Source: Bacteroidetes bacterium HGW-Bacteroidetes-17 (lineage in GTDB: Bacteria; Bacteroidota; Bacteroidia; Bacteroidales; GCA-2711565). From it: 64,000 bases of DNA. The DNA lies in assembly GCA_002840985.1 (NCBI GenBank), contig PHDM01000001.1, positions 5,412-69,411 of the forward strand, read 5' to 3'. Each line of letters starts with the position of its first letter. Position 1 is the first letter of the stretch. Of this stretch, positions 6,608 to 56,196 are shown piece by piece. Below the pieces are notes generated by a model. That model made no database searches. It was given only the letters and a program-made list of their open reading frames with translations, and was not told where the DNA came from. A program made the translations under genes and the position numbers.

Positions 6608-6720
6608 TGTCAGTTCGAGCTTCCGCCGAAGGCGGATAAATGTCGAGAACTGGCATGTTCCTGGGTGGCCACATTTCGGCATGCTTCGACTAGAGCTCAG
6701 TACAAGTGCTCAATATGACC
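6608..6720. repeat. Hairpin-type intergenic repeat (TCGAGC...GTCGAG / TTCGAC...GCTCAAT family), degenerate copy
   Basis: GTCAGTTCGAGC..(CCGCCgaaGGCGG hairpin)..GTCGAGAAC ... TTTCGGCATGCTTCGAC..GTGCTCAATATGAC. Same arm motifs as the cleaner copy at 33394-33486. Confidence 0.6.
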
Positions 6721-35981: not shown

Positions 35982-36329
35982 TTATTCTAAATCAATAATT
36001 ATTTGTATGTTTTCTTTGACCAATTCTATCAAGTTCTTTGGTAAGTCTCCAACTTTATTTATTAGTCTTTTATTATCTATGGAACGAATTTGATCGATCA
36101 TGACATCGCAGTCCTGATTTAGATCAGCCATTCCTTTTTTTAGATGAACTCTTAATATTTCAGAGTCCTTTTTTATGTTTGTCGTGATAGGACAAACAAT
36201 AGTTGAAGGATGAGGGATTTTGTTCAGCAAATTAGTCTGGACGACTAAAACAGGTCTGGTTTTCCCAGGTTCTGTTCCAATCTGTGGATTTAGGTCAGCT
36301 ATCCATATTTCAAATTGTTTAATCAACAT
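35982..36329 (-). CDS. Type II toxin, PemK/MazF-family mRNA interferase
   Basis: IKQFEIWIADLNPQIGTEPGKTRPVLVVQTN..CPITT is the MazF/PemK fold signature. The ATG at 36329 is preferred and overlaps the antitoxin stop by 11 nt. Confidence 0.85.
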   Translation of the reverse strand: MLIKQFEIWIADLNPQIGTEPGKTRPVLVVQTNLLNKIPHPSTIVCPITTNIKKDSEILRVHLKKGMADLNQDCDVMIDQIRSIDNKRLINKVGDLPKNLIELVKENIQIIIDLE

Positions 36330-36549
36330 ATTCAATCTCCTCAAAATCTTTAAGTACAGACATTGAATCACTTTTAACTAATTCTGATTCGCTCTTTAGT
36401 TTTTTCTCAATAATTAATCGTCTCTGAATTTGGTTGTAATATTCCAGAGCCTCGTTAATATACCTATTTCTAGGTTTTTTCATTCTCAAGAGAATTTTTT
36501 CAGTTTCCACGAAAATAGAATCGTCAATTTTTAATGAGATAGTTTTCAT
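36319..36549 (-). CDS. Antitoxin, ribbon-helix-helix (CopG-like)
   Basis: 76 aa. MKTISLKIDDSIF...RNRYINEALEYY (RHH beta-strand + helices). Located immediately upstream of, and overlapping, the MazF-like gene. Confidence 0.7.
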   Translation of the reverse strand: MKTISLKIDDSIFVETEKILLRMKKPRNRYINEALEYYNQIQRRLIIEKKLKSESELVKSDSMSVLKDFEEIEYVD

Positions 36550-36609
36550 AATATTTTTGTTTTATACCACAAAAGTATATCATAAAAGCATATACTCCAA
36601 GTCTTTTTT

Positions 36610-36730
36610 GCATGCGGCATAACGGTTTGGAGCGCAGCGCATTTTGCGGCAGGTTTTCCTTTCCCCCGAGGGACAGGAAACAATACGAAAACCCTAAGGT
36701 TTTTATACCTGGCTTAGCGCCATGCTTTAT
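36610..36730. repeat. Cassette-boundary repeat A (long palindromic variant)
   Basis: GCATGCGGCATAACGGTTTGGAGCGC ... GGTTTTTATACCTGGCTTAGCGCCATGCTTTAT. Inner 11-bp hairpin TTTCCTTTCCC (36655-36665) / GGGACAGGAAA (36670-36680). Its ends resemble repeats B, C and D. Confidence 0.55.
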
Positions 36731-36755
36731 GATCCTTTGTAATGTAACTTTAATA

Positions 36756-37877
36756 TTAGTTTTTTGTCATGTATTGACTGATTTTTTTTTCGAAATTTCC
36801 AGTAAAATAACCTTCCCACTGTTCGACAATTTTTCCTTCGGGATTTATTAAAAAATATGTAGGAAATCCCAAAATTCCATATTTAAAACCAATTCCTGCA
36901 ATTATGCCTTTGCTATCAGAAATGTTTACCCAAGGAACATCATCTCTTTTTAAGCCTTCCTCCCAAATTTCTTCTTTTGTGTCAAGATTAAAACCTACAA
37001 TTATTAAATTATCTGTGTATTTTGAATGAATCTCTTTTAATTCCGGGATTGATTGAATACAAGGACCACAATTTGTTGCCCAAAAATCAATAAGTATATA
37101 TTTACCTTTAAAATCTGATAATTTGAATCTATTACCATTAATATCATATCCTTCAAAATCTGTTAGCTGATCACCTACTTGGGGTGGTTCTTGTTTGTTC
37201 AGAATGGATAATATTCCTTCAGCATACAAGGAATGAATATAGGTTGAATCAAATCTCTTATATACTTCACTTACTCTATCTTTTGGGATACTATTTTTAG
37301 AGGCAAGAATATAATAAAGCTTTTCTATAGCAATAAAACTGTTAGGCTTTTTTTCAATAGCATTAAATTCGATGCTGTTTTTGATTTTGTAAATTGAATC
37401 AATTTTAAAATTTACAACTTTAATAATATCTTTATTCTCTCTGTTTTTTGATCGAATTAATGCAAGGCTATCAATCTTTCTGGATAAATGTTTCGTGTTT
37501 TGAGTTATTTCATTTAAAATCTTTTGTTCAACCGTTTCACTTTCAACTGACCAAGATGATAAAAAAATGTTATCTCCTTTTACAAATATTTTTTGATAAT
37601 CAACCCATAGATCACAAGTTCCTCTAAAATTATTATAATCTCGAATCATTAAATACATTTTAATGGGGCTTTGAGATAACGTGTCTGAAAATTCAAAATA
37701 TCCATCAAAGATTGTATCAGTTTTAATTCTACTAGCTGATCCATCGTTTTCTGCATAAAGATCGATTATCGTTTCATTAGGTATGTTTCTGAGTTGACCC
37801 GAGATAACATATTTTTCTTGTTTTTTTTGACAAGATATTATGCTTATTAATAAGAGAATAAATAAGATTTTTTTCAT
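36756..37877 (-). CDS. TlpA/AhpC-TSA family thiol:disulfide oxidoreductase lipoprotein
   Basis: Lipobox LLISIISC. N-terminal beta domain, then a thioredoxin fold with FWATNCGPC (CxxC) and GFPTYFLINPEGKIV. Confidence 0.8.
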   Translation of the reverse strand: MKKILFILLLISIISCQKKQEKYVISGQLRNIPNETIIDLYAENDGSASRIKTDTIFDGYFEFSDTLSQSPIKMYLMIRDYNNFRGTCDLWVDYQKIFVKGDNIFLSSWSVESETVEQKILNEITQNTKHLSRKIDSLALIRSKNRENKDIIKVVNFKIDSIYKIKNSIEFNAIEKKPNSFIAIEKLYYILASKNSIPKDRVSEVYKRFDSTYIHSLYAEGILSILNKQEPPQVGDQLTDFEGYDINGNRFKLSDFKGKYILIDFWATNCGPCIQSIPELKEIHSKYTDNLIIVGFNLDTKEEIWEEGLKRDDVPWVNISDSKGIIAGIGFKYGILGFPTYFLINPEGKIVEQWEGYFTGNFEKKISQYMTKN

Positions 37878-37907
37878 AACAATTTAAATTTGTGTTCTTT
37901 AATTTTT

Positions 37908-37964
37908 ACACAACGTTTCAGCCGGGTAAGAATCCGCAAATGTTTTATAGCCTTTTTTATGCGC
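37908..37964. repeat. Cassette-boundary repeat B
   Basis: ACACAACG-TTTCAGCCGGGTAAGAATCCGCAAATGTTTTATAGCC-ttttt-TATGCGC. The 37-nt core is 33/37 identical to repeat C. Confidence 0.7.
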
Positions 37965-38015
37965 TGTTACTTATTATTAATTTCAAAACAGTCTTTTAAA
38001 TTTCTACAAAAATTA

Positions 38016-38552
38016 TTAATTTGGGTCTGAGAATTCATCAACTTCAATTAGTTCAACTTCAAATACTACAGTATATTTTTCTTTTAGTTTCGGTATGATG
38101 GCCCAGTTCATGGCATCATGCCCAATAGAGGGAATATTTAAGTATTCAATTTTTATTGAATACTTAATTGTTTTATTTAATGGGTTGTCAATTATTCTGT
38201 AGTTAAAACGTACATAGCTGCTCGGTGTATGAATATATTTCCCAATGATAGATTGTTTGTTAAAATCAAATGGAGGTAATGTAGCTGTTTCACACCCAAT
38301 CTGGTTTCTGCTAAGCTGAGCAATTGTATATGCACCAAATTCTTGATAGGCTGCATTATCAGTAAAAATTACCTCCCTTTGATATGCTTCACCTTTAGGA
38401 CTAAAGCAATTATAGAATGGATGGTTAATAAAATCAACTTGATCTGTAATGTCAGTAATGAATAAATCTTCTTTGTCATTACAAGTTGTAAAGAGCAAAA
38501 TAAAAAAAACACTTATCAGATTAAGATAAATGAAGAAATTTCGATTTTTCAT
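38016..38552 (-). CDS. Hypothetical lipoprotein
   Basis: 178 aa, lipobox LLFTTC, no recognisable domain. AT-rich. Confidence 0.6.
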   Translation of the reverse strand: MKNRNFFIYLNLISVFFILLFTTCNDKEDLFITDITDQVDFINHPFYNCFSPKGEAYQREVIFTDNAAYQEFGAYTIAQLSRNQIGCETATLPPFDFNKQSIIGKYIHTPSSYVRFNYRIIDNPLNKTIKYSIKIEYLNIPSIGHDAMNWAIIPKLKEKYTVVFEVELIEVDEFSDPN

Positions 38553-38570
38553 GGTTTATAATGTTTAATT

Positions 38571-38626
38571 GCGCATAGCGTTTCAGCCGGGTACAAACCC
38601 GCCAATGTTTTATAGCCGTTGTCGTG
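38571..38626. repeat. Cassette-boundary repeat C
   Basis: GCGCATA-gcg-TTTCAGCCGGGTACAAACCCGCCAATGTTTTATAGCC-GTTGTCGTG. Abuts the stop codon of the Roco gene. Confidence 0.7.
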
Positions 38627-38627
38627 T

Positions 38628-40592
38628 TTAGTTTTTTTTCATTTTCTTAAAATAGTCTTCAATTAACTTATTTATATTTATACCAAGACCAAAAAAGTTT
38701 GGTTGAAGCAATATGTATTTGTTAATTTGTTTTTTTGCAATCTCAGGATCATTATATTGTTTAGAAATTTCTGAGACAATTTTGTGAATTTCCTTAATTA
38801 ATTCTTTTTCATCTTCAATTGGTTCAAAATATCCCAGTAATTTACTTATTTCTATATCGCTAATACTTTTTAAGCATTCAATAGTTTTCTTGTTTTTTGA
38901 CTGAAACTTTCGCAAAGTGGAATAATTAAATAAGTGTGGATTATTAGACTCTTTACATTCTTCACAAATGCAATGAATCATTTCATTTACTTCTGGATTG
39001 TTTAAAGATTTATGAATATAATTCATGTCTTTTCTGATGATACTTAGAACGTCTGATTTATTTTCTCCATAAATAAATACATTGATTTTTTTATTTAAAT
39101 AGTCATTAATCAAAAGTGCTTGTGAACCTTCGTACATGATCAAAACTCCGTTTCTCCAAAAAATCTTATTTTTAATCAAATGATGATTTAATACAATAAA
39201 TCTTGTAAGAATAGCTTTGGGCATGAAAGAATAGTGATATTCAAATTTTAGATTATTTTGATAATCCCAAGGTATTTTTTCTATTGATTCAGGCAGTAAT
39301 TCAGGAATAATATATTCTTTAGAATCTGAGATTTCAAAACATAACTCAAATTTTTTCATGAGTTCCAATAAATATATATGGTTTTCTCTTGGGTAACTCT
39401 TCCAAAATGTGAGCAAGTCATTATAGTTAAACTGTCCAAAATTTTCAATAACCTCTTTCGTGTCTGTTAAAGAATAGACTGCATTTGTTGCCCATTCAGG
39501 TTTTAAGAAAATTATTTCTTTTAATATTGGATTTCCTTGAAAATGCAAGAATACACCCAAATCATGATAATATCTACTGAGAAATAAGGCTGAGCTCTCG
39601 TCAAGTGCATAATCAGAACAAATAGAGATGTATTCATTGAAATTCAAATAGTTTTTCTCCAGCGATTGTAAATGAATTCTTATATCAATCCATGCCTTTG
39701 GTAAAGAGTCTCCAATATGTTCAAGTTTAAATACTTCACTTTTAATACATTCAATTAAGCTTTCAATCCCAATATTGTTTTTTGCGCTAACATTATAAAA
39801 CCCAACAATGTTTGGGAAGTATTTCATTAGGCTTTTTTCATCTAAATTTTTAACTCTTTTATCAACTTTATTCTGAACTATAATAACTGGGGATGAATCA
39901 CTTAAAAGTTTAATAATGTTTAACCAATAATCTATACTAATATATTTATCTTCTTTTATTGAATCCCAAACAAAAATATATAAAGATCGTTTTGTTAAAA
40001 AAAACTGATGAGTTGAATGATATATTTCTTGTCCACCAAAATCCCAAATATTAATTTTAAAGTCATTTATATCATTGATATCTAATTTTAGTGTTTTTAT
40101 TTCAATTCCTTCTGTAGATGTGATTTCTTTGTTAAAGTTATTGTAAAGAATCCTATGCATCAAGGTGCTTTTTCCAACATATCCTTCTCCAACAATTAAT
40201 AGTTTTGCTTCAAACACTTTAGATTCATCAGATTCTAATTGTATGAAATAATTTTTAATTGCATCAAGACCTTGATTTACTATTTCAATTGGTGGTTCAA
40301 TCAAAGGATTGCCGCTAATTTCAAGTCTTTTCAAGTTTGGTAGAAAAACTAACTCTTTTGGAATTTTTTTTATTGAGTTATAACTTAATTTAATGCTTTC
40401 TAAATTCTCAAGTATTTTAATGTCTTTCGGAATTTCTGTAATATCATTATCAACCAAGTCAATAGATTTTAACCAAGAGAATTCCAATAAATCTATTGGG
40501 AAATAATTAAGTTGAATACCACTTAAATATATGTCTTTAATGACTTTGTTATCCTTAACTATTTTAAGTATATTTTTTGCTTCTAGATTCAT
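38628..40592 (-). CDS. Roco-family protein: LRR + Roc (Ras-of-complex) GTPase + COR domain
   Basis: About 4 N-terminal LRRs (LKSIDLVDNDITEIP, LESIKLSYNSIKKIP, LKRLEISGNPL). GTPase motifs LLIVGEGYVGKST (G1), WDFGGQ (G3), VQNKVD (G4), VSAK (G5). A long COR-like region follows, with a C-terminal CICEECK cluster. Confidence 0.8.
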   Translation of the reverse strand: MNLEAKNILKIVKDNKVIKDIYLSGIQLNYFPIDLLEFSWLKSIDLVDNDITEIPKDIKILENLESIKLSYNSIKKIPKELVFLPNLKRLEISGNPLIEPPIEIVNQGLDAIKNYFIQLESDESKVFEAKLLIVGEGYVGKSTLMHRILYNNFNKEITSTEGIEIKTLKLDINDINDFKINIWDFGGQEIYHSTHQFFLTKRSLYIFVWDSIKEDKYISIDYWLNIIKLLSDSSPVIIVQNKVDKRVKNLDEKSLMKYFPNIVGFYNVSAKNNIGIESLIECIKSEVFKLEHIGDSLPKAWIDIRIHLQSLEKNYLNFNEYISICSDYALDESSALFLSRYYHDLGVFLHFQGNPILKEIIFLKPEWATNAVYSLTDTKEVIENFGQFNYNDLLTFWKSYPRENHIYLLELMKKFELCFEISDSKEYIIPELLPESIEKIPWDYQNNLKFEYHYSFMPKAILTRFIVLNHHLIKNKIFWRNGVLIMYEGSQALLINDYLNKKINVFIYGENKSDVLSIIRKDMNYIHKSLNNPEVNEMIHCICEECKESNNPHLFNYSTLRKFQSKNKKTIECLKSISDIEISKLLGYFEPIEDEKELIKEIHKIVSEISKQYNDPEIAKKQINKYILLQPNFFGLGININKLIEDYFKKMKKN

Positions 40593-40869
40593 ATATTTTT
40601 AATACAGTTCTTAGTTTGATGGTATCGCTTTAAAAATTAAACACAACTAGTATATCTATTCATGTTTACAGAACAATACATCCCGTATTCGCGTGTATCA
40701 TTCATATTTCGTATAATTTTATTTATAAAATTTTTAATCATTCATCATGATTTAAATTTTTAAACGGGGAGAAAGTCAAATATATAAAAAAATATGATGC
40801 CTTCATTAAATGGTTTTTGATTAATGTAAGGTGATCGGTAGGAAAGTTATTTGAGTAAATTATCATTGA

Positions 40870-41026
40870 GACTTCTCGAAAATATAAATGGGAGAAGTCA
40901 AAAAAAAAATAAGACTTCTCTAAAGTAGAGCTTCAGGGACGACGTCCCCGGATGGGGACGTTGTCCCTCATATGGGACTTCTCAAAAATATAAATGAGAG
41001 AAGTCAAAATTGAAATGGGAGAAGTC
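40870..41026. repeat. GACTTCTC / GAGAAGTC hairpin-iteron array flanking a 15-bp GC-rich hairpin
   Basis: Two 36-nt hairpin units GACTTCTC-N14-GAGAAGTC (40870-40899 and 40976-41005). Lone GACTTCTC at 40913-40920. Lone GAGAAGTC at 41019-41026. Central hairpin AGGGACGACGTCCCC (40935-40949) / GGGGACGTTGTCCCT (40954-40968). Confidence 0.85.
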
Positions 41027-41114
41027 AAAAGTTGAGATGGAAGCAGTGTAAATTTTAAATTGCATTTGATATTCCTATGTAAGAATGAATTTCTGACAAA
41101 TTTAGATTCCGGTC

Positions 41115-41146
41115 AAAAAAAAAAAGCCCCGAAATTTCGGGGCCTT
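41115..41146 (-). terminator. Rho-independent terminator of the rubrerythrin-like gene
   Basis: Perfect palindrome GCCCCGAAATTTCGGGGC (41126-41143), followed on the minus strand by an 11-nt T-run. Confidence 0.9.
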
Positions 41147-41170
41147 TACTTATTAAAACATCAACCTGCT

Positions 41171-41830
41171 TTATGAATCGAGCGTAGTTATCTTGATGAA
41201 TTTTTCGGAGCCGGTCATTGATATTCCACATCGCTTTGGGGATTCGGTATCGTAGGTATTTCCACAGGTAGGACATACATAAAACACGCTTGGCAATGAG
41301 CTCACTTTATTGTTTTCTAATGCAGCAAGTGCATTTTCGTAAAGCGGTTTGTGCTTTTGTTCGGTTTTATAAGCATAATTCAAGCTTATCAGTGCGAATT
41401 GATTTCCTGCTTTATTTGCGTTGACCAAAAATTCGGGATACATGGTGGTGATTTCATAAGTCTCACCTTTAATTGCATCCATCAAATTTTCTTTGGTAGA
41501 ATTTACAGTAAATTCAGGGGTAAATTCAGGTGCTTTTTGTCCGCCTTCGGTTAATACGGCCTTGTGATTATTGGCATGTATTTTCTCCGAAATAGAAGCT
41601 GTTTTAAATAATAATGCAATTTCGTGGTATCCTTCTGCTTCTGCTTTTTTGCTGTATTCAGCGTACTTGGCACTTGCAGTGGTTTCACCAATGTAAGCCG
41701 ATTTCATGTTTTCGAAATTCAAGGTTTTTGCATCTTGTGCGTTTGCCTGTTTTTCGTTACTGATGCTTGTGAACGATTGCAACAATATTGCTGTTGCAGC
41801 TAAAATCATAATTATTGATATTTTTTTCAT
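41171..41830 (-). CDS. Rubrerythrin-family (ferritin-like di-iron) protein with N-terminal signal peptide and degenerate C-terminal rubredoxin-like tail
   Basis: Signal-like MKKISIIMILAATAILLQSFTSIS. IGETTASAKYAEYSKKAEAEGYHEIA, two ExxH motifs (SEKIH, EQKH). C-terminus YVCPTCGNTY..KRCG has only 3 Cys. Confidence 0.75.
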   Translation of the reverse strand: MKKISIIMILAATAILLQSFTSISNEKQANAQDAKTLNFENMKSAYIGETTASAKYAEYSKKAEAEGYHEIALLFKTASISEKIHANNHKAVLTEGGQKAPEFTPEFTVNSTKENLMDAIKGETYEITTMYPEFLVNANKAGNQFALISLNYAYKTEQKHKPLYENALAALENNKVSSLPSVFYVCPTCGNTYDTESPKRCGISMTGSEKFIKITTLDS

Positions 41831-41893
41831 GTTGAATATTTTTTATAAGTTTTGTTTAATGATGCAAAGATGCACCCATTCGTATTCGAACAT

Positions 41894-41925
41894 CCTTAAG
41901 CAATTCTTAAAATTTGCTTAAGAAA
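41894..41925 (-). promoter_or_regulatory. Three CTTAA direct repeats at exact 11-bp spacing upstream of the rubrerythrin-like gene (candidate OmpR-family response-regulator site)
   Basis: CTTAA at 41895, 41906 and 41917. The 23-mer 41903-41925 ATTCTTAAAATTTGCTTAAGAAA is 20/23 identical to 44547-44569. Confidence 0.5.
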
Positions 41926-41926
41926 C

Positions 41927-43303
41927 TCAGGACGGGAACTGTAAGTTGAAGGTAGTTCCGATGCCGATCCGGCTTTCTACCTCTAATTTGATGTTTTGTA
42001 TTTCGGCCAGTTTTTTAACAATGGAAAGTCCCAATCCGTTTCCTTTGATCATTGAGCTTCTGGAAGCATCGGCCCGATAAAAACGGTCGAACACTTTCGG
42101 AAGGTTTTCTTCCGAAATTCCAATTCCATCATCCTTAATCGATAGGGTTTTCAGGGTATCATCCCAATTCAGGAAAAGATTGCCGTTCATGTTTCCATAC
42201 TTCAGTCCGTTATTGATCAGGTTGGCAAGGATGAGTTCGACATAAAGTTTATCGCCCCATACCATCACCTTTTTGGGCAGTTGCTGATGAATGGTGATGT
42301 TCTTTTCTCCGGCAATTTTTTTGCATTTTGTGAAAAATACAGCAATGGTATCCGATAAATTGATTTGTTCCCTTTTGATGGTCAGTTGATCCGAATCAAT
42401 ACGGGCGATTTGCAACAATTGTTCGAGTAAAAGATCAAGGCGGTCGACCTGTTCGATGATGGTGGTAATTTTTTCTTCATAAACATGGGCTTCGCGAGGC
42501 CTGCGGATTAACACCTCGAGCGTACCCCGAATCGCCGAAAGCGGGGTCCTTATTTCGTGCGAAGCATCACTTGTAAATTGTTTTTGTTGGACCATGCTTC
42601 TTTCAATTCGCGCAAGTAATTCGTTGATTGTTTGCATTAACTGATACAATTCGTCTTTGTGTGCAGGCAAATCGAGTCGCGTACTTATATTTGAATCGCT
42701 TATTCCCGAAGCCGTTTTGATGAGCTGATGAACAGGTTTGATAGCCCTGGAGGCAGCGATTGAAGAAGCATAAAACTGAACCAAAAGAACAATCGGAAAG
42801 CTGCCAAACAATACCCAAATCAAATTGTTCAGGATCGCATGCGATTCCTGTTGCGACACGGCAATTGTGATTTGCCCAAGCGTATTTCCACCATCGTTTT
42901 TTAGAAGAAATTGACCCAGTCGGATTTTTTGCCCGTTAATTTCTCCATTAAAAAAGGAATCTTTATCATTGAGCGATCCATCTGATATTTGCCCTTCAGC
43001 CAAATTAGTCGAACGAAAAATGATTTTACCGCTGATATCCTGAATCTGAAAAAAAGTAGGATTTACTTCCACCTGGTTATGCTCGGCTTCTTCCCATTCG
43101 GGCATTTTATTGATGATGATAGAATCCTGAATGATCAACAGATTGCTTATTACTTCTTCTTTCTCTAATAAAATGTCTTCATCTAAATGAGAATACGCGG
43201 TTGTGTTTACAACAAAATAAATGACAAAAAATACCAATACCGTAATGATTGCTACAGCAAGGGTATTAAAAAGGGCAATTCGATTTTTGAATTTCAAACT
43301 CAT
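41927..43303 (-). CDS. Sensor histidine kinase (two TM, HAMP, HisKA, HATPase_c; heavy-metal/CusS-like architecture)
   Basis: H-box FTSDASHEIRTPLSAI. N/G boxes LINNGLKYG, DDGIGI, GNGLGLSIV. 458 aa. Confidence 0.85.
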   Translation of the reverse strand: MSLKFKNRIALFNTLAVAIITVLVFFVIYFVVNTTAYSHLDEDILLEKEEVISNLLIIQDSIIINKMPEWEEAEHNQVEVNPTFFQIQDISGKIIFRSTNLAEGQISDGSLNDKDSFFNGEINGQKIRLGQFLLKNDGGNTLGQITIAVSQQESHAILNNLIWVLFGSFPIVLLVQFYASSIAASRAIKPVHQLIKTASGISDSNISTRLDLPAHKDELYQLMQTINELLARIERSMVQQKQFTSDASHEIRTPLSAIRGTLEVLIRRPREAHVYEEKITTIIEQVDRLDLLLEQLLQIARIDSDQLTIKREQINLSDTIAVFFTKCKKIAGEKNITIHQQLPKKVMVWGDKLYVELILANLINNGLKYGNMNGNLFLNWDDTLKTLSIKDDGIGISEENLPKVFDRFYRADASRSSMIKGNGLGLSIVKKLAEIQNIKLEVESRIGIGTTFNLQFPS

Positions 43304-43977
43304 TCGTCATCTTCTATTTTGTATCCAATTCCGCGAACCGTAGTAATGATTGAGGGTTTGCCCGGTTCGTCGAGTTTTTTACGCAAGGCATTGATATAAA
43401 CATCAATCACAGAGGTGTCGTAATCAAAATGGATGTCCCAAACTTTTTCGATTATTCCGGTACGACGGCATACTTTGCCTTTATTGCGTAAAAAATATTC
43501 GAGTAACGAAAATTCTTTTTGAGTGAGTTCAACGGGAACCCCTTTTTTCGTAACCGAGTGTTTATCGATATCCAATTCGATTCCGGCTGCTGAAAAAAGA
43601 AAGGGTTGGGTTTCATTTTTGCGCATGTGTACCCGAATCCTGGCCAGCAGCTCCTCGAATGAAAAAGGTTTACGGATATAATCGTTGGCTCCGGCTTCTA
43701 ATCCAAAAATAACATCGTCAACCGTATCTTTTGCTGTTAGAAAAATGATGGGAACGACAGTGTTTTCTTTTCGGATATTACGGCAAATTTCAATTCCGTT
43801 AAGCCCCGGTAGCATCCAATCAAGTAAGATTACATCGTACTCTTCAACAAAATCGAGAGCAAGTTGCAATCCTTCTTTTCCATTGTCGGAAACATCTACA
43901 GCAAAGCCTTCTTCCTGTAATCCATCACGAATAAAATTAGCGATGGATGTTTCGTCTTCTACAATAAGTATGCGCAT
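43300..43977 (-). CDS. OmpR/PhoB-family response regulator
   Basis: MRILIVEDE, LLDWMLPG (phospho-acceptor Asp), winged-helix C-terminus TVRGIGYKI. 4-nt overlap with the kinase gene. Confidence 0.9.
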   Translation of the reverse strand: MRILIVEDETSIANFIRDGLQEEGFAVDVSDNGKEGLQLALDFVEEYDVILLDWMLPGLNGIEICRNIRKENTVVPIIFLTAKDTVDDVIFGLEAGANDYIRKPFSFEELLARIRVHMRKNETQPFLFSAAGIELDIDKHSVTKKGVPVELTQKEFSLLEYFLRNKGKVCRRTGIIEKVWDIHFDYDTSVIDVYINALRKKLDEPGKPSIITTVRGIGYKIEDDE

Positions 43978-44019
43978 GATATTTTATTGGCTTGATTGTA
44001 TCAAAGGTACAGAAATCCA

Positions 44020-44490
44020 TTAATCTATATCCAAATCGGCACCAAAATCGGGGAGTGACAATTCTACTCCGGCAGCATGCCGGTAAACCAATTGTCCGCC
44101 TAAATAACCTGTAGTTCCAACTGCTCCTACCAAAACTGTAAATAAGAATATAATAGCCCATTTTGTCCATTTCCGATTGTATTTAAAATAAGAAATGGCA
44201 ACCTTAAATAAGGATACAATAATCGCAAGCCATAAGGTGATGGTAGCTGCTTGTTCGTGAAGTTCAAGTGGTGCCTTAAGCGGGCCTTCTTCAATCCCTT
44301 CGCCTGCAAAATTGCCACTGATGTAAGCTACTATGGCACTTAAAGCACCAATGAGCAGAAGATACATTGCTGCATTTTTAAAAAAATCTTTTTTACTGAA
44401 GAGTGCAATCATTTCCGACAAAAAACCCACCATTATCAGGGCAATCGGGAAATGAATTACCATTGCGTGTAAATGTGTTGCTGAGATCAT
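44020..44490 (-). CDS. DUF2231-like four-helix membrane protein, first gene of the two-component operon
   Basis: THLHAMVIHFPIALIMVGFL N-terminus typical of DUF2231. 156 aa, 4 TM. Confidence 0.65.
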   Translation of the reverse strand: MISATHLHAMVIHFPIALIMVGFLSEMIALFSKKDFFKNAAMYLLLIGALSAIVAYISGNFAGEGIEEGPLKAPLELHEQAATITLWLAIIVSLFKVAISYFKYNRKWTKWAIIFLFTVLVGAVGTTGYLGGQLVYRHAAGVELSLPDFGADLDID

Positions 44491-44528
44491 AGTTTTTTAA
44501 TTTTAAGGCAAAATTAAATGCTGAAGGA

Positions 44529-44569
44529 TTTAAGAAGGATTAGGAGATTCTTAAGATTAGCTTAAAAAA
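44529..44569 (-). promoter_or_regulatory. CTTAA direct repeats (11-bp phase) upstream of the DUF2231-RR-HK operon
   Basis: CTTAA at 44550 and 44561. Degenerate ATTAG at 44539 and TTTAA at 44529. 23-mer ATTCTTAAGATTAGCTTAAAAAA (44547-44569). Confidence 0.5.
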
Positions 44570-44705
44570 ACAGAATTCCCTGATTTTTTTAAGGATAATC
44601 CGGTATTAAAATCCAATCACAAATCCTTTAAATAATAAAAATAACAAAATATGTTGAATAATTCGATATGTGTTGGTAATTCTTATCGATCAATAATTGA
44701 ATTTG

Positions 44706-45818
44706 TCAAACAATTTGCCCCTGATCTATAATAAGTTTATCCCCTTCTTGAATTCGTTTGTAATGACAAAACAACAAATCCCCATTTTCTTCATTGCGAA
44801 GGTGCATGCCGTTTCCTTCACAGTATTTAAAAAATTCACAATCGGCGCATTCACCGGTCCTTGTCCAGCTTCGATCCCTGAATTTGGCGTATTTGTTTTC
44901 CCAGATCTCTTTAAAACTGTCGGTATAAATATTACCTTGTATGAAATTGGACCTTAAATTCGGGCAGGCCGAAATGGAGCCATCGATAAGAACGGATGCA
45001 ATATTTATTCCGGCCCTGCAAAAGAATAAATTATCCCTGACTTCGGCCTCATAAGCACCTAAAAATCCTTCACAGCCATAATTGAGCTTGATATGACCCT
45101 TTTTACGTTCGGCTGCCATGAAATCGAAAAGTTGCTTAAACTGAACCGGATTTAATTGCAATTCTTCATATTCTTTAGCTCTTCCGATAGGAAAAACGGT
45201 AAATATGCGCCACTCTTTTAACCCTTTTGAAAGGAGCAGTTCTTTTATTTTTCCCAGTTCATGAAAGTTTTTTTGATTTACACAGGTCACCACATCGAAT
45301 CTCAGGTCGGGGATTTTTGCCAGGAGCCCGATTGCACTGACTGCTTTTTCAAAACTATGTGGATTGCCCCTCAGCCAATTATGCGATTCTTCCAGTCCAT
45401 CCAGACTGATGGTAACCGACCTTAGCCCCGCTTCCAGTAAAGAGCTGATCCGGCTCGGTGTTAGATGAAGTCCGTTCGAAACCATCCCCCAGGGAAAACC
45501 CCGGTCGTAAAGTTGTTTTCCGCAAACTTCCAGGTCTTTTCGCAAAAGTGGTTCGCCTCCGGTAAAAACGATCATGGTATTGTTCGGTTCAACGATGCTT
45601 TTAATGTCCTCAATGGCTCCGATAAAATCCTTGATGGGCATGTCTTTAACCATCGCATCTTTGGTGCAATCGCTGCCGCAATGCAAACAGTTGAGGTTGC
45701 ATCGAAGGGTACATTCCCAAAATATATAACTCAGTTGGTGGGTTTTTTTCGCATTGTTCCGGTACTTTTTAAAAAGTTCCAGTGCCATTTTTTTACGCAA
45801 GGAGAGTTTTAAACTCAT
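44706..45818 (-). CDS. Radical SAM / SPASM-domain protein (lipoprotein-associated)
   Basis: CTLRCNLNCLHC (CX3CX2C), GGEPLL, C-terminal auxiliary-cluster cysteines FFCRAG..ACPN..GECADCEFFKYCEG..FCH. The start overlaps the upstream lipoprotein stop (ATGA). Confidence 0.9.
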   Translation of the reverse strand: MSLKLSLRKKMALELFKKYRNNAKKTHQLSYIFWECTLRCNLNCLHCGSDCTKDAMVKDMPIKDFIGAIEDIKSIVEPNNTMIVFTGGEPLLRKDLEVCGKQLYDRGFPWGMVSNGLHLTPSRISSLLEAGLRSVTISLDGLEESHNWLRGNPHSFEKAVSAIGLLAKIPDLRFDVVTCVNQKNFHELGKIKELLLSKGLKEWRIFTVFPIGRAKEYEELQLNPVQFKQLFDFMAAERKKGHIKLNYGCEGFLGAYEAEVRDNLFFCRAGINIASVLIDGSISACPNLRSNFIQGNIYTDSFKEIWENKYAKFRDRSWTRTGECADCEFFKYCEGNGMHLRNEENGDLLFCHYKRIQEGDKLIIDQGQIV

Positions 45819-46270
45819 GATTCTTCTTTCAGTTTGATGTTCATTTCTTTGGAAGTTTCGCCTTTATACCAACTTTCTCCTCCTTCAAATACGGGGTTAA
45901 TGAATTTAACGGTCGTGTCTTTTGCCTGATAGCTTCCATGAGCAGCACCGTCAATGTCTTTAAATTCTAAGATATAATTATGATCCCTTGGAAAATCGGC
46001 AATACGTACTTCATAATTCCCGTAATAATCAGAAATGACTGTATCAGGCAATGGATATATTTGTTCGGATTTCATAATAACCCTTATTGCGGGTATATTA
46101 ATCCCATTTTCAGAAGTAACCTTGCCATAAACTTTAAAAGTTGCATATGGACTTCCATATTCGATACCACCAGATGGTATCTTGAATTTAGTGCAAGATG
46201 CTCCAAATCCTAAAATGGTCAAAAGAAATGCAATAAATAAATTGTATTTCTTTAGTGCTGCTTGTTTCAT
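45815..46270 (-). CDS. rSAM-associated putative lipoprotein, paralog 1
   Basis: Lipobox LGFGASC. Shares the YGSPYATFKVYGKVTSENGINIPAIRVIM, DYYGNYEV, FKDIDG and KDTTVKF...WYKGETSKEMNIKLK blocks with the next two genes. Confidence 0.85.
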   Translation of the reverse strand: MKQAALKKYNLFIAFLLTILGFGASCTKFKIPSGGIEYGSPYATFKVYGKVTSENGINIPAIRVIMKSEQIYPLPDTVISDYYGNYEVRIADFPRDHNYILEFKDIDGAAHGSYQAKDTTVKFINPVFEGGESWYKGETSKEMNIKLKEES

Positions 46271-46320
46271 TTTAATGCATTAATTAGGTTTATAGGTTGT
46301 TAAACTGCCTGTACAATATA

Positions 46321-46806
46321 TTATTCTCCTTCTTTTTTTAGCTTGATGTTTACTTCTTTAGATGCCTCACCTACATACCATGCACCTCCATTCTCAAACT
46401 TCGGATCAACAAACTTAATGATTGTATCTTTGGTTTGATAGGATTTTAAAGCTAACCCATCTGTATCCTCAAATTTTAAATTATAATCCATTTTGCCTCT
46501 ATCATCCATAAGTCTCACCTGATAATTACCATAATAATCTGCAATGCTTGTATCTGAATTTGTATAGGTGGCAAAGCTTGTGTCAGAAATTGGATAGGAA
46601 TAATCAGCCGACATAATAACCTTGATGGCTGGTATTCTCACCCCATCTTCTGAAGTGACCTTACCATAAATCCTGAATCCTGCACTTGGAGTTCCGTAAC
46701 CAGGACTGACCTCTTCTTTTGAGCAGGCAGTTCCGAATCCTAAAATGGTTAAGAGAAATGCAATGAATAAATTGTATTTCTTTAGGGTAAATTTTTTCAT
46801 TTTCAT
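46321..46806 (-). CDS. rSAM-associated putative lipoprotein, paralog 2
   Basis: Lipobox LGFGTAC. Same conserved blocks, with an 11-aa insertion (SFATYTNSDTS). Confidence 0.85.
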   Translation of the reverse strand: MKMKKFTLKKYNLFIAFLLTILGFGTACSKEEVSPGYGTPSAGFRIYGKVTSEDGVRIPAIKVIMSADYSYPISDTSFATYTNSDTSIADYYGNYQVRLMDDRGKMDYNLKFEDTDGLALKSYQTKDTIIKFVDPKFENGGAWYVGEASKEVNIKLKKEGE

Positions 46807-46852
46807 GAATTAATTTGAGTGATTGTGTATCGTAACACTAATACACAATATA

Positions 46853-47305
46853 TTATTCTCCTTCTTTTTTTAGTTTGATGTTCACTTCTTTGGAAGCTTC
46901 ACCCCGATACCATCCATTTCCGTTTTCATATATTGGATCTTTAAACTTAATAATGGTATCCTTTGTTTGAAAGCTTCCATGAGCTTCGCCGTCGATATCT
47001 TCAAATTTAAGAGGAAAATCATTGAAGTAATATGAAGAATCAAGAACCTTTACTTCATAATTCCCATCATAATCAGAAATTACCGTATCAGATTCCTGAT
47101 GAATACTTGCTGACATGATCACCATGATTGCTGGTATTTTTTCACCCTCTTCAGAAGTGACTTTGCCATAGACTTTGAAAGTTGCATGTGGTGTTCCATA
47201 AGCTGACATCGTTTCTTCTTCTTGCTTCGTGCAAGATGTAAATCCTAAAATTGAAAGCAGGAAGGCAATAATTATATTATGCGTTTTGATCAATCTTAGT
47301 TTCAT
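46853..47305 (-). CDS. rSAM-associated putative lipoprotein, paralog 3
   Basis: Lipobox LGFTSC. Same conserved blocks. Its 3' end and downstream 12 nt are near-identical to paralog 2 at the DNA level. Confidence 0.85.
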   Translation of the reverse strand: MKLRLIKTHNIIIAFLLSILGFTSCTKQEEETMSAYGTPHATFKVYGKVTSEEGEKIPAIMVIMSASIHQESDTVISDYDGNYEVKVLDSSYYFNDFPLKFEDIDGEAHGSFQTKDTIIKFKDPIYENGNGWYRGEASKEVNIKLKKEGE

Positions 47306-54945: not shown

Positions 54946-55202
54946 AATTAGGATTAGATTAGGTTAAACAATAGAATATATAAACCTAATTAAAAACTTA
55001 GTGATAAATAAATAAAATAGACGTAAAGTTCGGATTTATCGATGAGTAAGGAGAGATGCACACTATAATTAAATTAATTGGTGTGTCCAGATTAAATGTT
55101 CCAATCAGTTTTGTGTTTTGGAAGAATTTGTTAGAGAATTTTTTATTTTATTGATCATACAAACATGAATTTTTCTTATTCAAAGAAGGTTAATCAATTC
55201 AA

Positions 55203-55251
55203 AAAAAACCGACCATTGGCCGGCTTTTAATTTAGTTGTGGAGTGGCAGGG
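55203..55251 (-). repeat. Degenerate duplicate of the tmRNA 3' end plus its terminator (att-like remnant)
   Basis: AAAAAACCGACCATTGGCCGGCTTTT..GTTGTGGAGTGGCAGGG versus 55800-55844 AAAAAACTGACCAATGGTCAGCTTTTTTGTTGTGGAGCTGCAGGG. Confidence 0.65.
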
Positions 55252-55543
55252 CTTTCTCGTTCCGCTTCACTTCACGGGATAGACTTCTCAATGAAATAAA
55301 GCCCATAAAAGCCACTAAGAAGTTTTCACGCTCTATCGACACTTAGAATCAGATCAACCCTAAGTAGTTAAATGGTATTACTGCAATGCATAATTGCCTT
55401 TAATGCTGGAGTTCTTAAATTATTTCCCTACTTGGGAATTAAATTGATTACCTTTATGAAAAGCACATCTTAATTTTCTTTCCTAAAAAGCTTGTTTTTA
55501 TTTGAAGATGTACCTATGGGACTGATATTAATACTAAACACCG

Positions 55544-55777
55544 ATGACAACGAGACAACTGATGGAAAAAAATGTTTGCGGAGTAAATAAATTCTTGAAA
55601 GCTAAAGTAAAAAACATGACAATAGCAGAATTGCTATACAACATGCATCCGTCTGATAGAGCAGACTTTTTAAGGGATAAAGAATTAGTAAAGCAAATTC
55701 CTGCAGATATACTAGTTAAATTGAACTTTGAGATAAATAAATTTTACGTTGAAAAACAAAAGCAAAAACAACCTTAA
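55544..55777 (+). CDS. Hypothetical 77-aa protein inside the segment bracketed by the tmRNA 3'-end duplicates
   Basis: ATG ORF with no recognisable motif, followed by the bidirectional hairpin at 55806-55820. Coding status is uncertain. Confidence 0.35.
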   Translation: MTTRQLMEKNVCGVNKFLKAKVKNMTIAELLYNMHPSDRADFLRDKELVKQIPADILVKLNFEINKFYVEKQKQKQP

Positions 55778-55831
55778 TTAACGGATTTCAACTAAACAAA
55801 AAAAACTGACCAATGGTCAGCTTTTTTGTTG

Positions 55832-56196
55832 TGGAGCTGCAGGGATTCGAACCCTGGTCCAAACAAGCAGTCAAAACGCTTTCTACATGCTTATCCTTTA
55901 GTTGATTGTCGGGAGATAACCGATGAAAGGCACACCTATTATCACCTTAGTCTTTTTATTTCGCTCGTGCACCAAGACCTTGCAAAAGCTAGCTCAACAT
56001 TTATGATGCTTCGGTCGGGACACCGTTAAGCGAGGTTTCCCGGGAAGCAGTAAGCGGCTTAATCTCTAGACTAAGCGGCTAACGCGTAATGATTGTCGCC
56101 AGTTAATGGCTGTGAGAATTAGGATTAACGAGGCATATTCACAACCCTCGGCATGCTTACATCTCCACTTCCTTGCTGTCAAAACCGGTCAGCCCC
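55832..56196 (-). ncRNA. ssrA: tmRNA (SsrA), tag reading frame GDNHYALAA-stop
   Basis: The minus strand starts GGGGCTGACCGGTTTTGACAGC and ends GGACCAGGGTTCGAATCCCTGCAGCTCCA (T-arm + acceptor with G3:U wobble; CCA not encoded). Tag ORF GGC GAC AAT CAT TAC GCG TTA GCC GCT TAG at 56100-56071. Terminator hairpin CTGAC/GTCAG at 55806-55820. Confidence 0.93.

Follow-up and report, generated by a model that had tools for sequence, protein, structure and literature searches.

A phased repeat array upstream of a Roco gene is probably one copy of a lineage-specific interspersed repeat in an uncultured Bacteroidetes

What is a dense cluster of short direct and inverted repeats doing upstream of a Roco gene? 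The cluster occupies positions 40870-41026 of a 64-kb stretch of DNA (the window, by which we mean the whole stretch analysed) from the metagenome-assembled genome (MAG) Bacteroidetes bacterium HGW-Bacteroidetes-17. It lies in a 578-bp spacer that has a rubrerythrin gene on one side and the Roco gene on the other. A preliminary description, made from the letters of the window, had offered three readings: an iteron or operator array for a protein controlling the Roco cassette, arm-type recombinase or transposase sites bounding a mobile element and tying it to the tmRNA gene ssrA, and a structured small RNA. Our comparisons point to a fourth. With a probability that we put at about 0.6, the cluster belongs to a small mosaic repeat that is interspersed in this lineage only, in the manner of the BOX and bacterial interspersed mosaic element (BIME) families.

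The 8-mer GACTTCTC occurs exactly on the + strand at 40870, 40913 and 40976, and its complement GAGAAGTC at 40892, 40998 and 41019, giving six copies within 40870-41026. The cluster is real and non-random, as had been claimed: the window as a whole holds eight matches to the two forms against a mean of 0.91 in shuffled sequence, and eight was reached in 0 of 100 shuffles. The two 34-nt hairpin units that had been described are also borne out by the sequence. Hairpin unit 1 (40870-40903, + strand) consists of core F1 (40870-40877), a 14-nt loop GAAAATATAAATGG, core R1 (40892-40899) and an AAAA tail, and an F-loop-R module of this kind is present at all loci of the family described below. It is followed on the + strand by an A10-TAA linker (40900-40912) and by the CTTC-type core F2 (40913-40920), 21 bp after R1; one Logan contig (L001) terminates 1 nt beyond F2. 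Hairpin unit 2 (40976-41009, + strand) comprises F3 (40976-40983), the loop AAAAATATAAATGA, R2 (40998-41005) and another AAAA tail, and a terminal GAAG-type unit, R3, closes the array (41013-41030, + strand; core 41019-41026, 21 bp after R2). The longer string AAATGRGAGAAGTCAAAA is found exactly three times, at 40886, 40992 and 41013.

Seen in alignment, the cluster is a tandem array with a period of 21-22 bp, built from the unit AAATGR-GA(GAAG/CTTC)TC-AAAA-N4. With F for a CTTC-type and R for a GAAG-type core, the order of units in the window is FRFFRR, and successive cores are 22, 21, 63, 22 and 21 bp apart. The outer GA..TC is common to GACTTCTC and GAGAAGTC, and the centre, CTTC or GAAG, is the sole difference between them. 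When the F and R units of all loci are aligned, the surroundings of both core types run in one direction: AAATGR before the core, AAAA after it, and then some four bases that vary. The apparently inverted copies are thus direct units in which the central four bases have been reverse-complemented. Where a CTTC unit precedes a GAAG unit, an 8-bp stem results, closed by a 14-nt loop of the conserved sequence AAAAnTATAAATGR. In all, 18 of the 22 unit positions are conserved and the core is invariant, whereas the 4-nt linker varies. The iteron-like character suggested in the preliminary description therefore holds as a matter of form: these are phased direct repeats with a period of 21-22 bp and an invariant core.

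The array is not confined to the Roco locus. A metagenome scan with the pattern GACTTCTC-N10-20-GAGAAGTCAAAA returned 61 stretches, eight of which are true relatives (L130, L135, L147, L157, L161, L170, L173 and L180; six from one sample, two from another). L173 is the ortholog of L157 in the second sample, so that seven distinct intergenic sites, in closely related genomes, are known besides the window. The array copy of L180 is also carried by an independent NCBI MAG, GCA_018816945.1 (L309). At every locus the spacing between cores within the array is 21 or 22 bp (29 of 29 spacings). The arrays hold three to six units, and their orders differ from locus to locus (FRRRRr, fFRR, FRRR, FRr, FRFF, FFRR). 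An F-loop-R-R module of 58-63 nt is 93-95% identical between loci while the flanks are otherwise unrelated, and segment 40969-41030 of the window matches L135, L147 and L180 at this level. There are at least five different left-hand flanks; on the right, an A-run followed by TAAGACTTGAG adjoins about half of the loci. The junction GTC-A9/10-TAA-GACTT, which in the window spans the A10-TAA linker, recurs in L170, L135, L147, L180 and a fumC allele without units (L305).

Beyond these sites the family appears to be narrowly distributed. No further locus with three phased cores was present in 2.5 Mb of fetched sequence, and the 64-kb window holds a single array. When a genome collection was scanned with the 18-mer AAATGRGAGAAGTCAAAA, each match listed was a lone occurrence in an unrelated taxon, and three or more cores stood together in 0 of the 119 stretches listed; the source species probably lies outside those matches. 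Viral scans gave no family member: an F-N-R pattern matched nothing but isolated hairpins, and an R-N-R pattern had no match. BLAST of the array against plasmids and phages gave no match, and a literature search with the motif strings gave only irrelevant eukaryotic matches. The single array in the window would suit a random local duplication without wider significance, the outcome expected had the motif been absent elsewhere and unconserved. Its probability is negligible: the motif recurs at other sites, a relative carries it at the corresponding locus, and the module stands at seven other distinct loci (eight scan matches) and in an independent MAG at 93-95% identity.

Comparison of orthologous sites indicates that arrays differ between close strains. 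L130 covers the Roco locus in a strain with 90.7% identity across 4.3 kb, and in the 162 nt that flank its array toward Roco the identity to the window rises to 98%. Its array reads F-R-R-R-R-r and lacks both the GC hairpin and the second hairpin unit. L130 also lacks the segment corresponding to window positions ~41103-44705, which encodes a DUF2231 protein, an OmpR-type response regulator, a histidine kinase and rubrerythrin, and its array directly follows a radical SAM gene. The breakpoint of this 3.6-kb indel lies ~75 nt from the array, in unrelated sequence.

A second site, beside fumC, varies more strongly. The strain represented by Ga0180007 and GCA_018816945 (L180, L309) carries an FFRR array there. 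The window's own MAG has zero units at this site in two independent assemblies (L305 and L306; FumC 96% identical), and the unit-less allele of L305 retains GTC-A9-TAAGACTTGAG alongside a lengthy series of other repeats. In a relative at 90% identity (L308, on a 4-Mb contig) the fumC spacer is short and has none of these elements. In addition, fumC and an MBL-fold hydrolase gene are adjacent in the window's MAG (L305), and this adjacency is broken in the related strain (L180/L309 and L147). Each breakpoint has an array next to it, one adjoining fumC and the other the MBL gene, and the two contigs measure 150 kb and 122 kb. The repeats are possible markers or mediators of a large rearrangement. 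Contigs end within these repeats in three assemblies.

The 15-bp GC-rich hairpin, which the preliminary description had placed at the centre of the structure, has a different origin. The stem itself is present (AGGGACGACGTCCCC at 40935-40949 and GGGGACGTTGTCCCT at 40954-40968; 93% complementary). Judged by its sequence, it is a separate dispersed repeat, inserted in this copy of the array at 40925-40973. These 49 positions are identical, 49 of 49, to L170 2334-2382 and 96-98% identical to three copies in L305, and the palindrome is missing from the orthologous L130 array. Two copies are found in L170 and three in L305, and the L307 contig breaks inside one; a viral scan with the palindrome gave no match. 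Elsewhere it is part of a ~230-nt composite repeat, and inside the window array it stands alone. This composite (L305 4480-5260; L170 2110-2560) combines the GC palindrome with motifs such as gcaccctgagtgcgaagc and cattccgaacgaagagaggaatc, and downstream of fumC it forms three tandem copies (L305 4480-5260). We considered whether the 63-bp gap between F2 and F3, three times 21 bp, reflects retained phasing. With the 43-49 nt insert taken out, 14-20 bp separate the flanking cores; the agreement is therefore probably a coincidence.

Other repeats accompany the arrays. A second 22-bp repeat, TTACTCAAAAGGnTTTyyCAnt, is represented in the window by the single unit TTTACTCAAATAACTTTCCT, of the TTACTCAAAAGG type (40840-40859, - strand). 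It is found in four tandem units in L157 (~690-775) and L173 (~1440-1520), in two in L135 (2424-2455, on the other strand) and in one in L147. This repeat lies between the GACTTCTC array and a further element, module X, and has (G/C)TCAAAAG in common with the main unit. Module X is a conserved leader of ~200 nt with three predicted hairpins, the second of which has some compensatory changes in the alignment and consensus fold; it has no Rfam match. Copies lie at L135 1989-2265 (-), L147 1878-2160 (+), L170 1074-1337 (-), L157 988-1246 (+) and L173 1608-1812 (+), directly 5' of the start codons of unrelated genes (unknowns of 659, 317 and 302 aa, and a CAAX-protease-like gene). Upstream of Roco only its 3' ~88 nt are left, as a remnant at 40635-40722 (- strand) that is 78% identical to L135 1995-2082; the Roco start codon is 43 nt away. 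What had been counted as a further copy of the array motif, the degenerate GAGAAAGTC at 40768-40776, also falls to this module. It lies in GGGGAGAAAGTCAAAT (40766-40781, + strand), which is not an array unit but aligns with the decayed first hairpin of module X (TTGACTTTCTCCCCG with TTGAAATTCTTTCCTGCC).

Two more dispersed repeats are shared with L147 at 88-91% identity (window 36640-36725 with L147 3672-3757; window 6609-6652 with L147 1525-1568). The first lies at the far edge of the low-G+C block that holds Roco, and in L147 an array and a repeat of this type bracket two unrelated genes. A ~45-nt repeat, gtttcagccgggta..aa.ccgc.aatgttttatagcc, occurs at window 37913-37978 and 38579-38622, on both sides of a 178-aa lipoprotein-like open reading frame (ORF; 38016-38552), and again at L161 1629-1694.

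The interspersed-repeat reading rests on features that typify small composite repeats of this sort. The array is dispersed, a short core module keeps a high identity amid unrelated flanks, strains gain and lose units, and orthologous sites either have an array or lack one. The arrays also form mosaics with other repeats, one of which has inserted into this copy, and the family is restricted to one narrow lineage. Such a repeat could spread as a non-autonomous element, selfish or neutral, with recombination or an enzyme supplied in trans doing the moving or copying; slippage would afterwards alter its arrays. The CTTC variant would be most simply explained as a GAAG unit changed by a single template switch that perfected the quasi-palindrome GA-GAAG-TC; template switching can make a perfect stem in one event (PMC8794818). 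Since the loop sequence is common to all loci, the F-loop-R-R module would have been propagated after the flip. Any effect on Roco would then be incidental, for example through hairpins or -7-like TAnnTTTG boxes carried upstream of the gene.

Several observations weigh against this reading. We found no mobilising enzyme, no terminal inverted repeats and no clean target-site duplication. Nor is there a clean empty site, the unit-less fumC allele having kept its GTC-A9-TAAGACTTGAG. In five of the seven distinct loci the array precedes a gene start by 110-490 nt, the gene facing away from the A-rich strand, an arrangement that is compatible with a regulatory role. Our metagenome scan required one F-N14-R hairpin, so that arrays without it would go unseen and the family as sampled is subject to ascertainment bias. 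Our main reservation is that an invariant core beside variable linkers suggests selection or gene conversion acting on a functional site, beyond what recent copying would leave.

This reservation leads to a rival explanation, in which the cluster is a protein-binding iteron array. Each 18-bp unit would bind one subunit of a lineage-specific protein, the two-turn phasing would put the bound subunits on one face of the helix, and the arrays would act as activating or silencing sites, that of Roco included. The strict 21-22 bp phasing at all loci fits this proposal, as do the conservation of 18 of 22 positions around an invariant core, the presence alongside of a second array (TTACTCAAAAGG) with the same 22-bp period, and the gene starts just mentioned, three of which have a full module X upstream (L135, L147 and L170). 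However, a 22-bp period needs no selection if the units are tandem duplications, and a central 4-bp flip with the flanks kept is ill-suited to one asymmetric protein site. The presence/absence and unit-count differences between close strains also speak against it, and no candidate binding protein is consistently encoded nearby. The neighbouring genes offer little help: arrays adjoin purA and a CAAX-protease-like gene (L157), fumC (L180), the MBL-fold hydrolase gene (L147), HU-HIG (L170) and several further genes without any family, and PADLOC and NCBIfam scans of the array-adjacent genes gave no common theme. The orientation of the array relative to the gene is reversed in L157 compared with L135, and the L180 array sits between two convergent gene ends and so cannot be a promoter element there. 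On balance we regard a protein-binding array as unlikely, though worth keeping in view.

The narrower idea of an operator for the Roco cassette fails on the same neighbours, unrelated to Roco and in one case convergent, and on the Roco homologues themselves. The Roco gene (38628-40592, - strand; 654 codons) encodes a protein with the Pfam architecture LRR-Roc-COR. Its closest homologues (73%, 67% and 63% identity) are in other neighbourhoods, and their upstream DNA is unrelated to the window region; homologues at 60-73% identity lack the array. Comparison of the intergenic region thus yields an array at the same Roco locus in the ~91%-identical strain and none at distant Roco homologues. The array is not a Roco-specific control element. 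The closest homologue (73%; L121 2088-3590) comes right after genes for an IS110-family transposase and a putative AbiC, a setting that suggests a Roco subfamily moving together with mobile or defence-type DNA.

A broader functional scheme can be envisioned. The 22-bp units could be phased functional sites spread over the chromosome and bound, on DNA or on purine-rich RNA, by one lineage-specific protein; together with the TTACTCAAAAGG array and module X they would form a portable cassette placed before accessory genes such as Roco. We offer this scheme as a speculation with rather low odds.

Could the array act as RNA? On the + strand it would give a purine-rich transcript with repeated GGGAGAAGUC motifs and one or two F:R hairpins, perhaps a sponge for a protein or another RNA. 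Read from the - strand, the product would be rich in pyrimidines and poor in G, and would influence how the transcript running into Roco terminates or how stable it is. The composition of the spacers is strongly strand-asymmetric (46-73% A and 0-12% C on the window + strand), and F and R cores, being exact complements in direct flanks, form hairpins. The array folds far better than shuffled sequence (z = -8.0 on the + strand, -7.9 on the - strand), but exact inverted 8-mers and a 15-bp palindrome would give this anyway, so that the value is unremarkable. A consensus fold of nine copies retains the 8-bp stem alone, with 8 of 8 pairs invariant; this leaves no covariation support for an RNA, and with every pair invariant covariation is uninformative either way. 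The F:R ratio ranges from 1:5 to 3:1 across loci, so there is no common fold; any shared architecture amounts to one hairpin at most, and our search pattern demanded that hairpin. Rfam 15 identified only tmRNA in the window, with nothing reaching the gathering threshold at the array. At E<=10 the array gave only weak microRNA and terminator look-alikes, and the eight family loci gave no match.

TAnnTTTG boxes lie within the array on the T-rich (-) strand at six of eight loci, a point in favour of the RNA reading. In Bacteroidetes promoters the distance from TTTG to the -7 element is typically ~17-21 nt. One TAnnTTTG box in the window points to Roco, and the nearest TTTG lies 14 nt upstream, below this spacing, on a strand so T-rich that chance is enough to explain the box; we therefore rejected these boxes as full promoters and left them as weak candidates. 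No TAnnTTTG is present upstream of the array on the A-rich strand at any of the eight loci, and no consistent adjoining terminator was noted. We consider an RNA-level function improbable. Both this and the protein-binding explanation would be compatible with a dispersed element.

The remaining proposal treats the units as arm-type recombinase or transposase sites at the end of a Roco-bearing mobile element, possibly related to ssrA. Some features of the locus suit it. The block 36000-41100 has a G+C content of 0.28-0.32 against 0.37-0.40 in its surroundings, with the array at one edge and the 36640-36725 repeat at the other, the same pair that brackets two genes in L147. Arrays also adjoin both breakpoints of the fumC/MBL synteny break. 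On the other side, no integrase, transposase or recombinase was found among the 28 window ORFs scanned, and no tyrosine or serine recombinase adjoins the array. Roco homologues occur elsewhere without it, no inverted partner array or duplicated core marks a second end, and the 3.6-kb strain indel ends ~75 nt away in unrelated sequence.

The link to ssrA dissolves as well. The copy of GACTTCTC at 55282-55289 (+ strand), earlier presented as a related copy with 16 of 19 matches, has no extended similarity. It is an 8-mer only, more than three mismatches from the 18-mer, and lies beyond the end of the tmRNA duplicate; two stray 8-mers in 64 kb fall within the shuffle range (largest value 5). We treat it as a chance match outside the family. 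The tmRNA gene (55831-56196, - strand; Rfam) does have a ~55-nt duplicate (55201-55255 against 55796-55848) of its terminator hairpin and last ~19 nt. The duplicates enclose ~590 bp with a 77-aa ORF (55544-55777), an arrangement resembling what an integrated element, small or decayed, would leave behind. The array is not a relic linked to the tmRNA gene. Recombinase sites have a very low probability here, and both this reading and that of a chance duplication are effectively excluded.

The remaining genes of the neighbourhood are briefly described. The rubrerythrin gene (41171-41830, - strand) is followed by a terminator at 41147-41122, and a look-up of its 219-aa ORF gave no record. A MazF/PemK-type toxin gene (35982-36371), with an overlapping 76-aa ORF upstream (region 35982-36549), lies at the edge of the low-G+C block. 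Farther away is a radical SAM/SPASM gene (44706-45818). Ahead of it come three small ORFs (45815-47305; 150-161 aa), paralogues with 70-74% identity in DNA, lipoprotein-like N-termini and no Pfam family. This arrangement (window 44706-47305) is also present in L130.

Our results remove a tempting but unsupported link between the array, the Roco GTPase and a tmRNA island. In its place they document, for an uncultured Bacteroidetes lineage from groundwater, a family of interspersed repeats that had not been described before. The repeats break assemblies and adjoin strain differences (the 3.6-kb indel and the fumC/MBL breakpoints), which bears on MAG quality and on the reading of intergenic motifs as regulatory. 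The unit design, with direct flanks and a flipped four-base centre, is a natural case of a hairpin arising within a tandem repeat. If the units do prove to be binding sites for a protein or an RNA, the family would mark a lineage-specific regulon.

How does the family compare with known systems? Among repeats with a period near 22 bp, the iterons of plasmid and phage origins are the obvious parallel; those of R6K and pPS10, for example, are 22-bp repeats. Origin iterons are direct tandem repeats of 17-22 bp with a conserved core, a variable linker and an A-rich context, and the 21-22 bp period of our arrays (29 of 29 spacings) falls in this range. However, they occupy a single locus per replicon beside a rep gene, whereas the arrays are found at many chromosomal loci beside housekeeping genes, and no rep gene adjoins any of them. 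The MIRU-type variable-number tandem repeat loci of mycobacteria have tandem units of 40-100 bp. Like the arrays, they place the same tandem unit at many intergenic loci, with a copy number that varies between strains. Their units are longer than the 22 bp seen here, the arrays add a hairpin-forming variant, and the two belong to different lineages and have no sequence relationship. Miniature inverted-repeat transposable elements have terminal inverted repeats and a target-site duplication. We found no inverted termini at the ends of the arrays; TTGAGTAA flanks those of L135 and L147 but belongs to another tandem motif, and the unit-less L305 allele is no clean empty site.

Repetitive extragenic palindromes (REP) and BIMEs are closer. 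Like the arrays, they are mosaics of short extragenic repeats with regular spacing, both orientations and variable copy number (PMC2817692, PMC3733652). The GC palindrome at 40935-40968 resembles REP in size and G+C content, being an imperfect, G+C-rich palindrome within the 20-40 bp range. The hairpin of the array does not, with its 8-bp stem, four G-C pairs and AT-rich 14-nt loop, and unlike in BIMEs it is the centre of the core alone, not the whole unit, that is inverted. In REP sequences one end of the palindrome bears a conserved tag, GTAG or CGTC, that stays unpaired (PMC3733652). A GTAG lies 6 nt before the GC stem in the window, but in other copies the AGCTTC leading into the stem follows CAGAG, TATAG or TAGAG, or has no such sequence ahead of it. 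The tag is thus unconserved at the GC palindrome, and there is none on the array units. No gene for a REP-associated Y1 transposase (RAYT) was present among the 28 window ORFs scanned.

The nearest counterpart is BOX of Streptococcus pneumoniae and S. suis, in which the number of tandem boxB modules varies between strains and which clusters with the RUP and SPRITE repeats, the families inserting into one another (PMC3049150). BOX elements, like our arrays, are short, intergenic, present in many copies and confined to a narrow lineage, with a tandem internal module that varies between strains; they, too, cluster with other repeat families, with mutual insertion, and are predicted to form stem-loops if transcribed (PMC3049150). 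The arrays have this variable module at dispersed intergenic sites, with three to six units at no fewer than seven distinct loci and differences between strains. The arrays resemble neither BOX nor other known elements in sequence, and the tandem unit of BOX is ~45 bp, compared with 22 bp here. Fixed terminal modules like boxA and boxC, with ends resembling terminal inverted repeats, are not established for the arrays, and the flipped central tetranucleotide has no BOX counterpart. By analogy, not membership, BOX may be regarded as the closest known relative in kind and BIME as the second. The arrays add a new family to a familiar class of bacterial repeats, and their unusual feature is the direct unit with a flipped centre.

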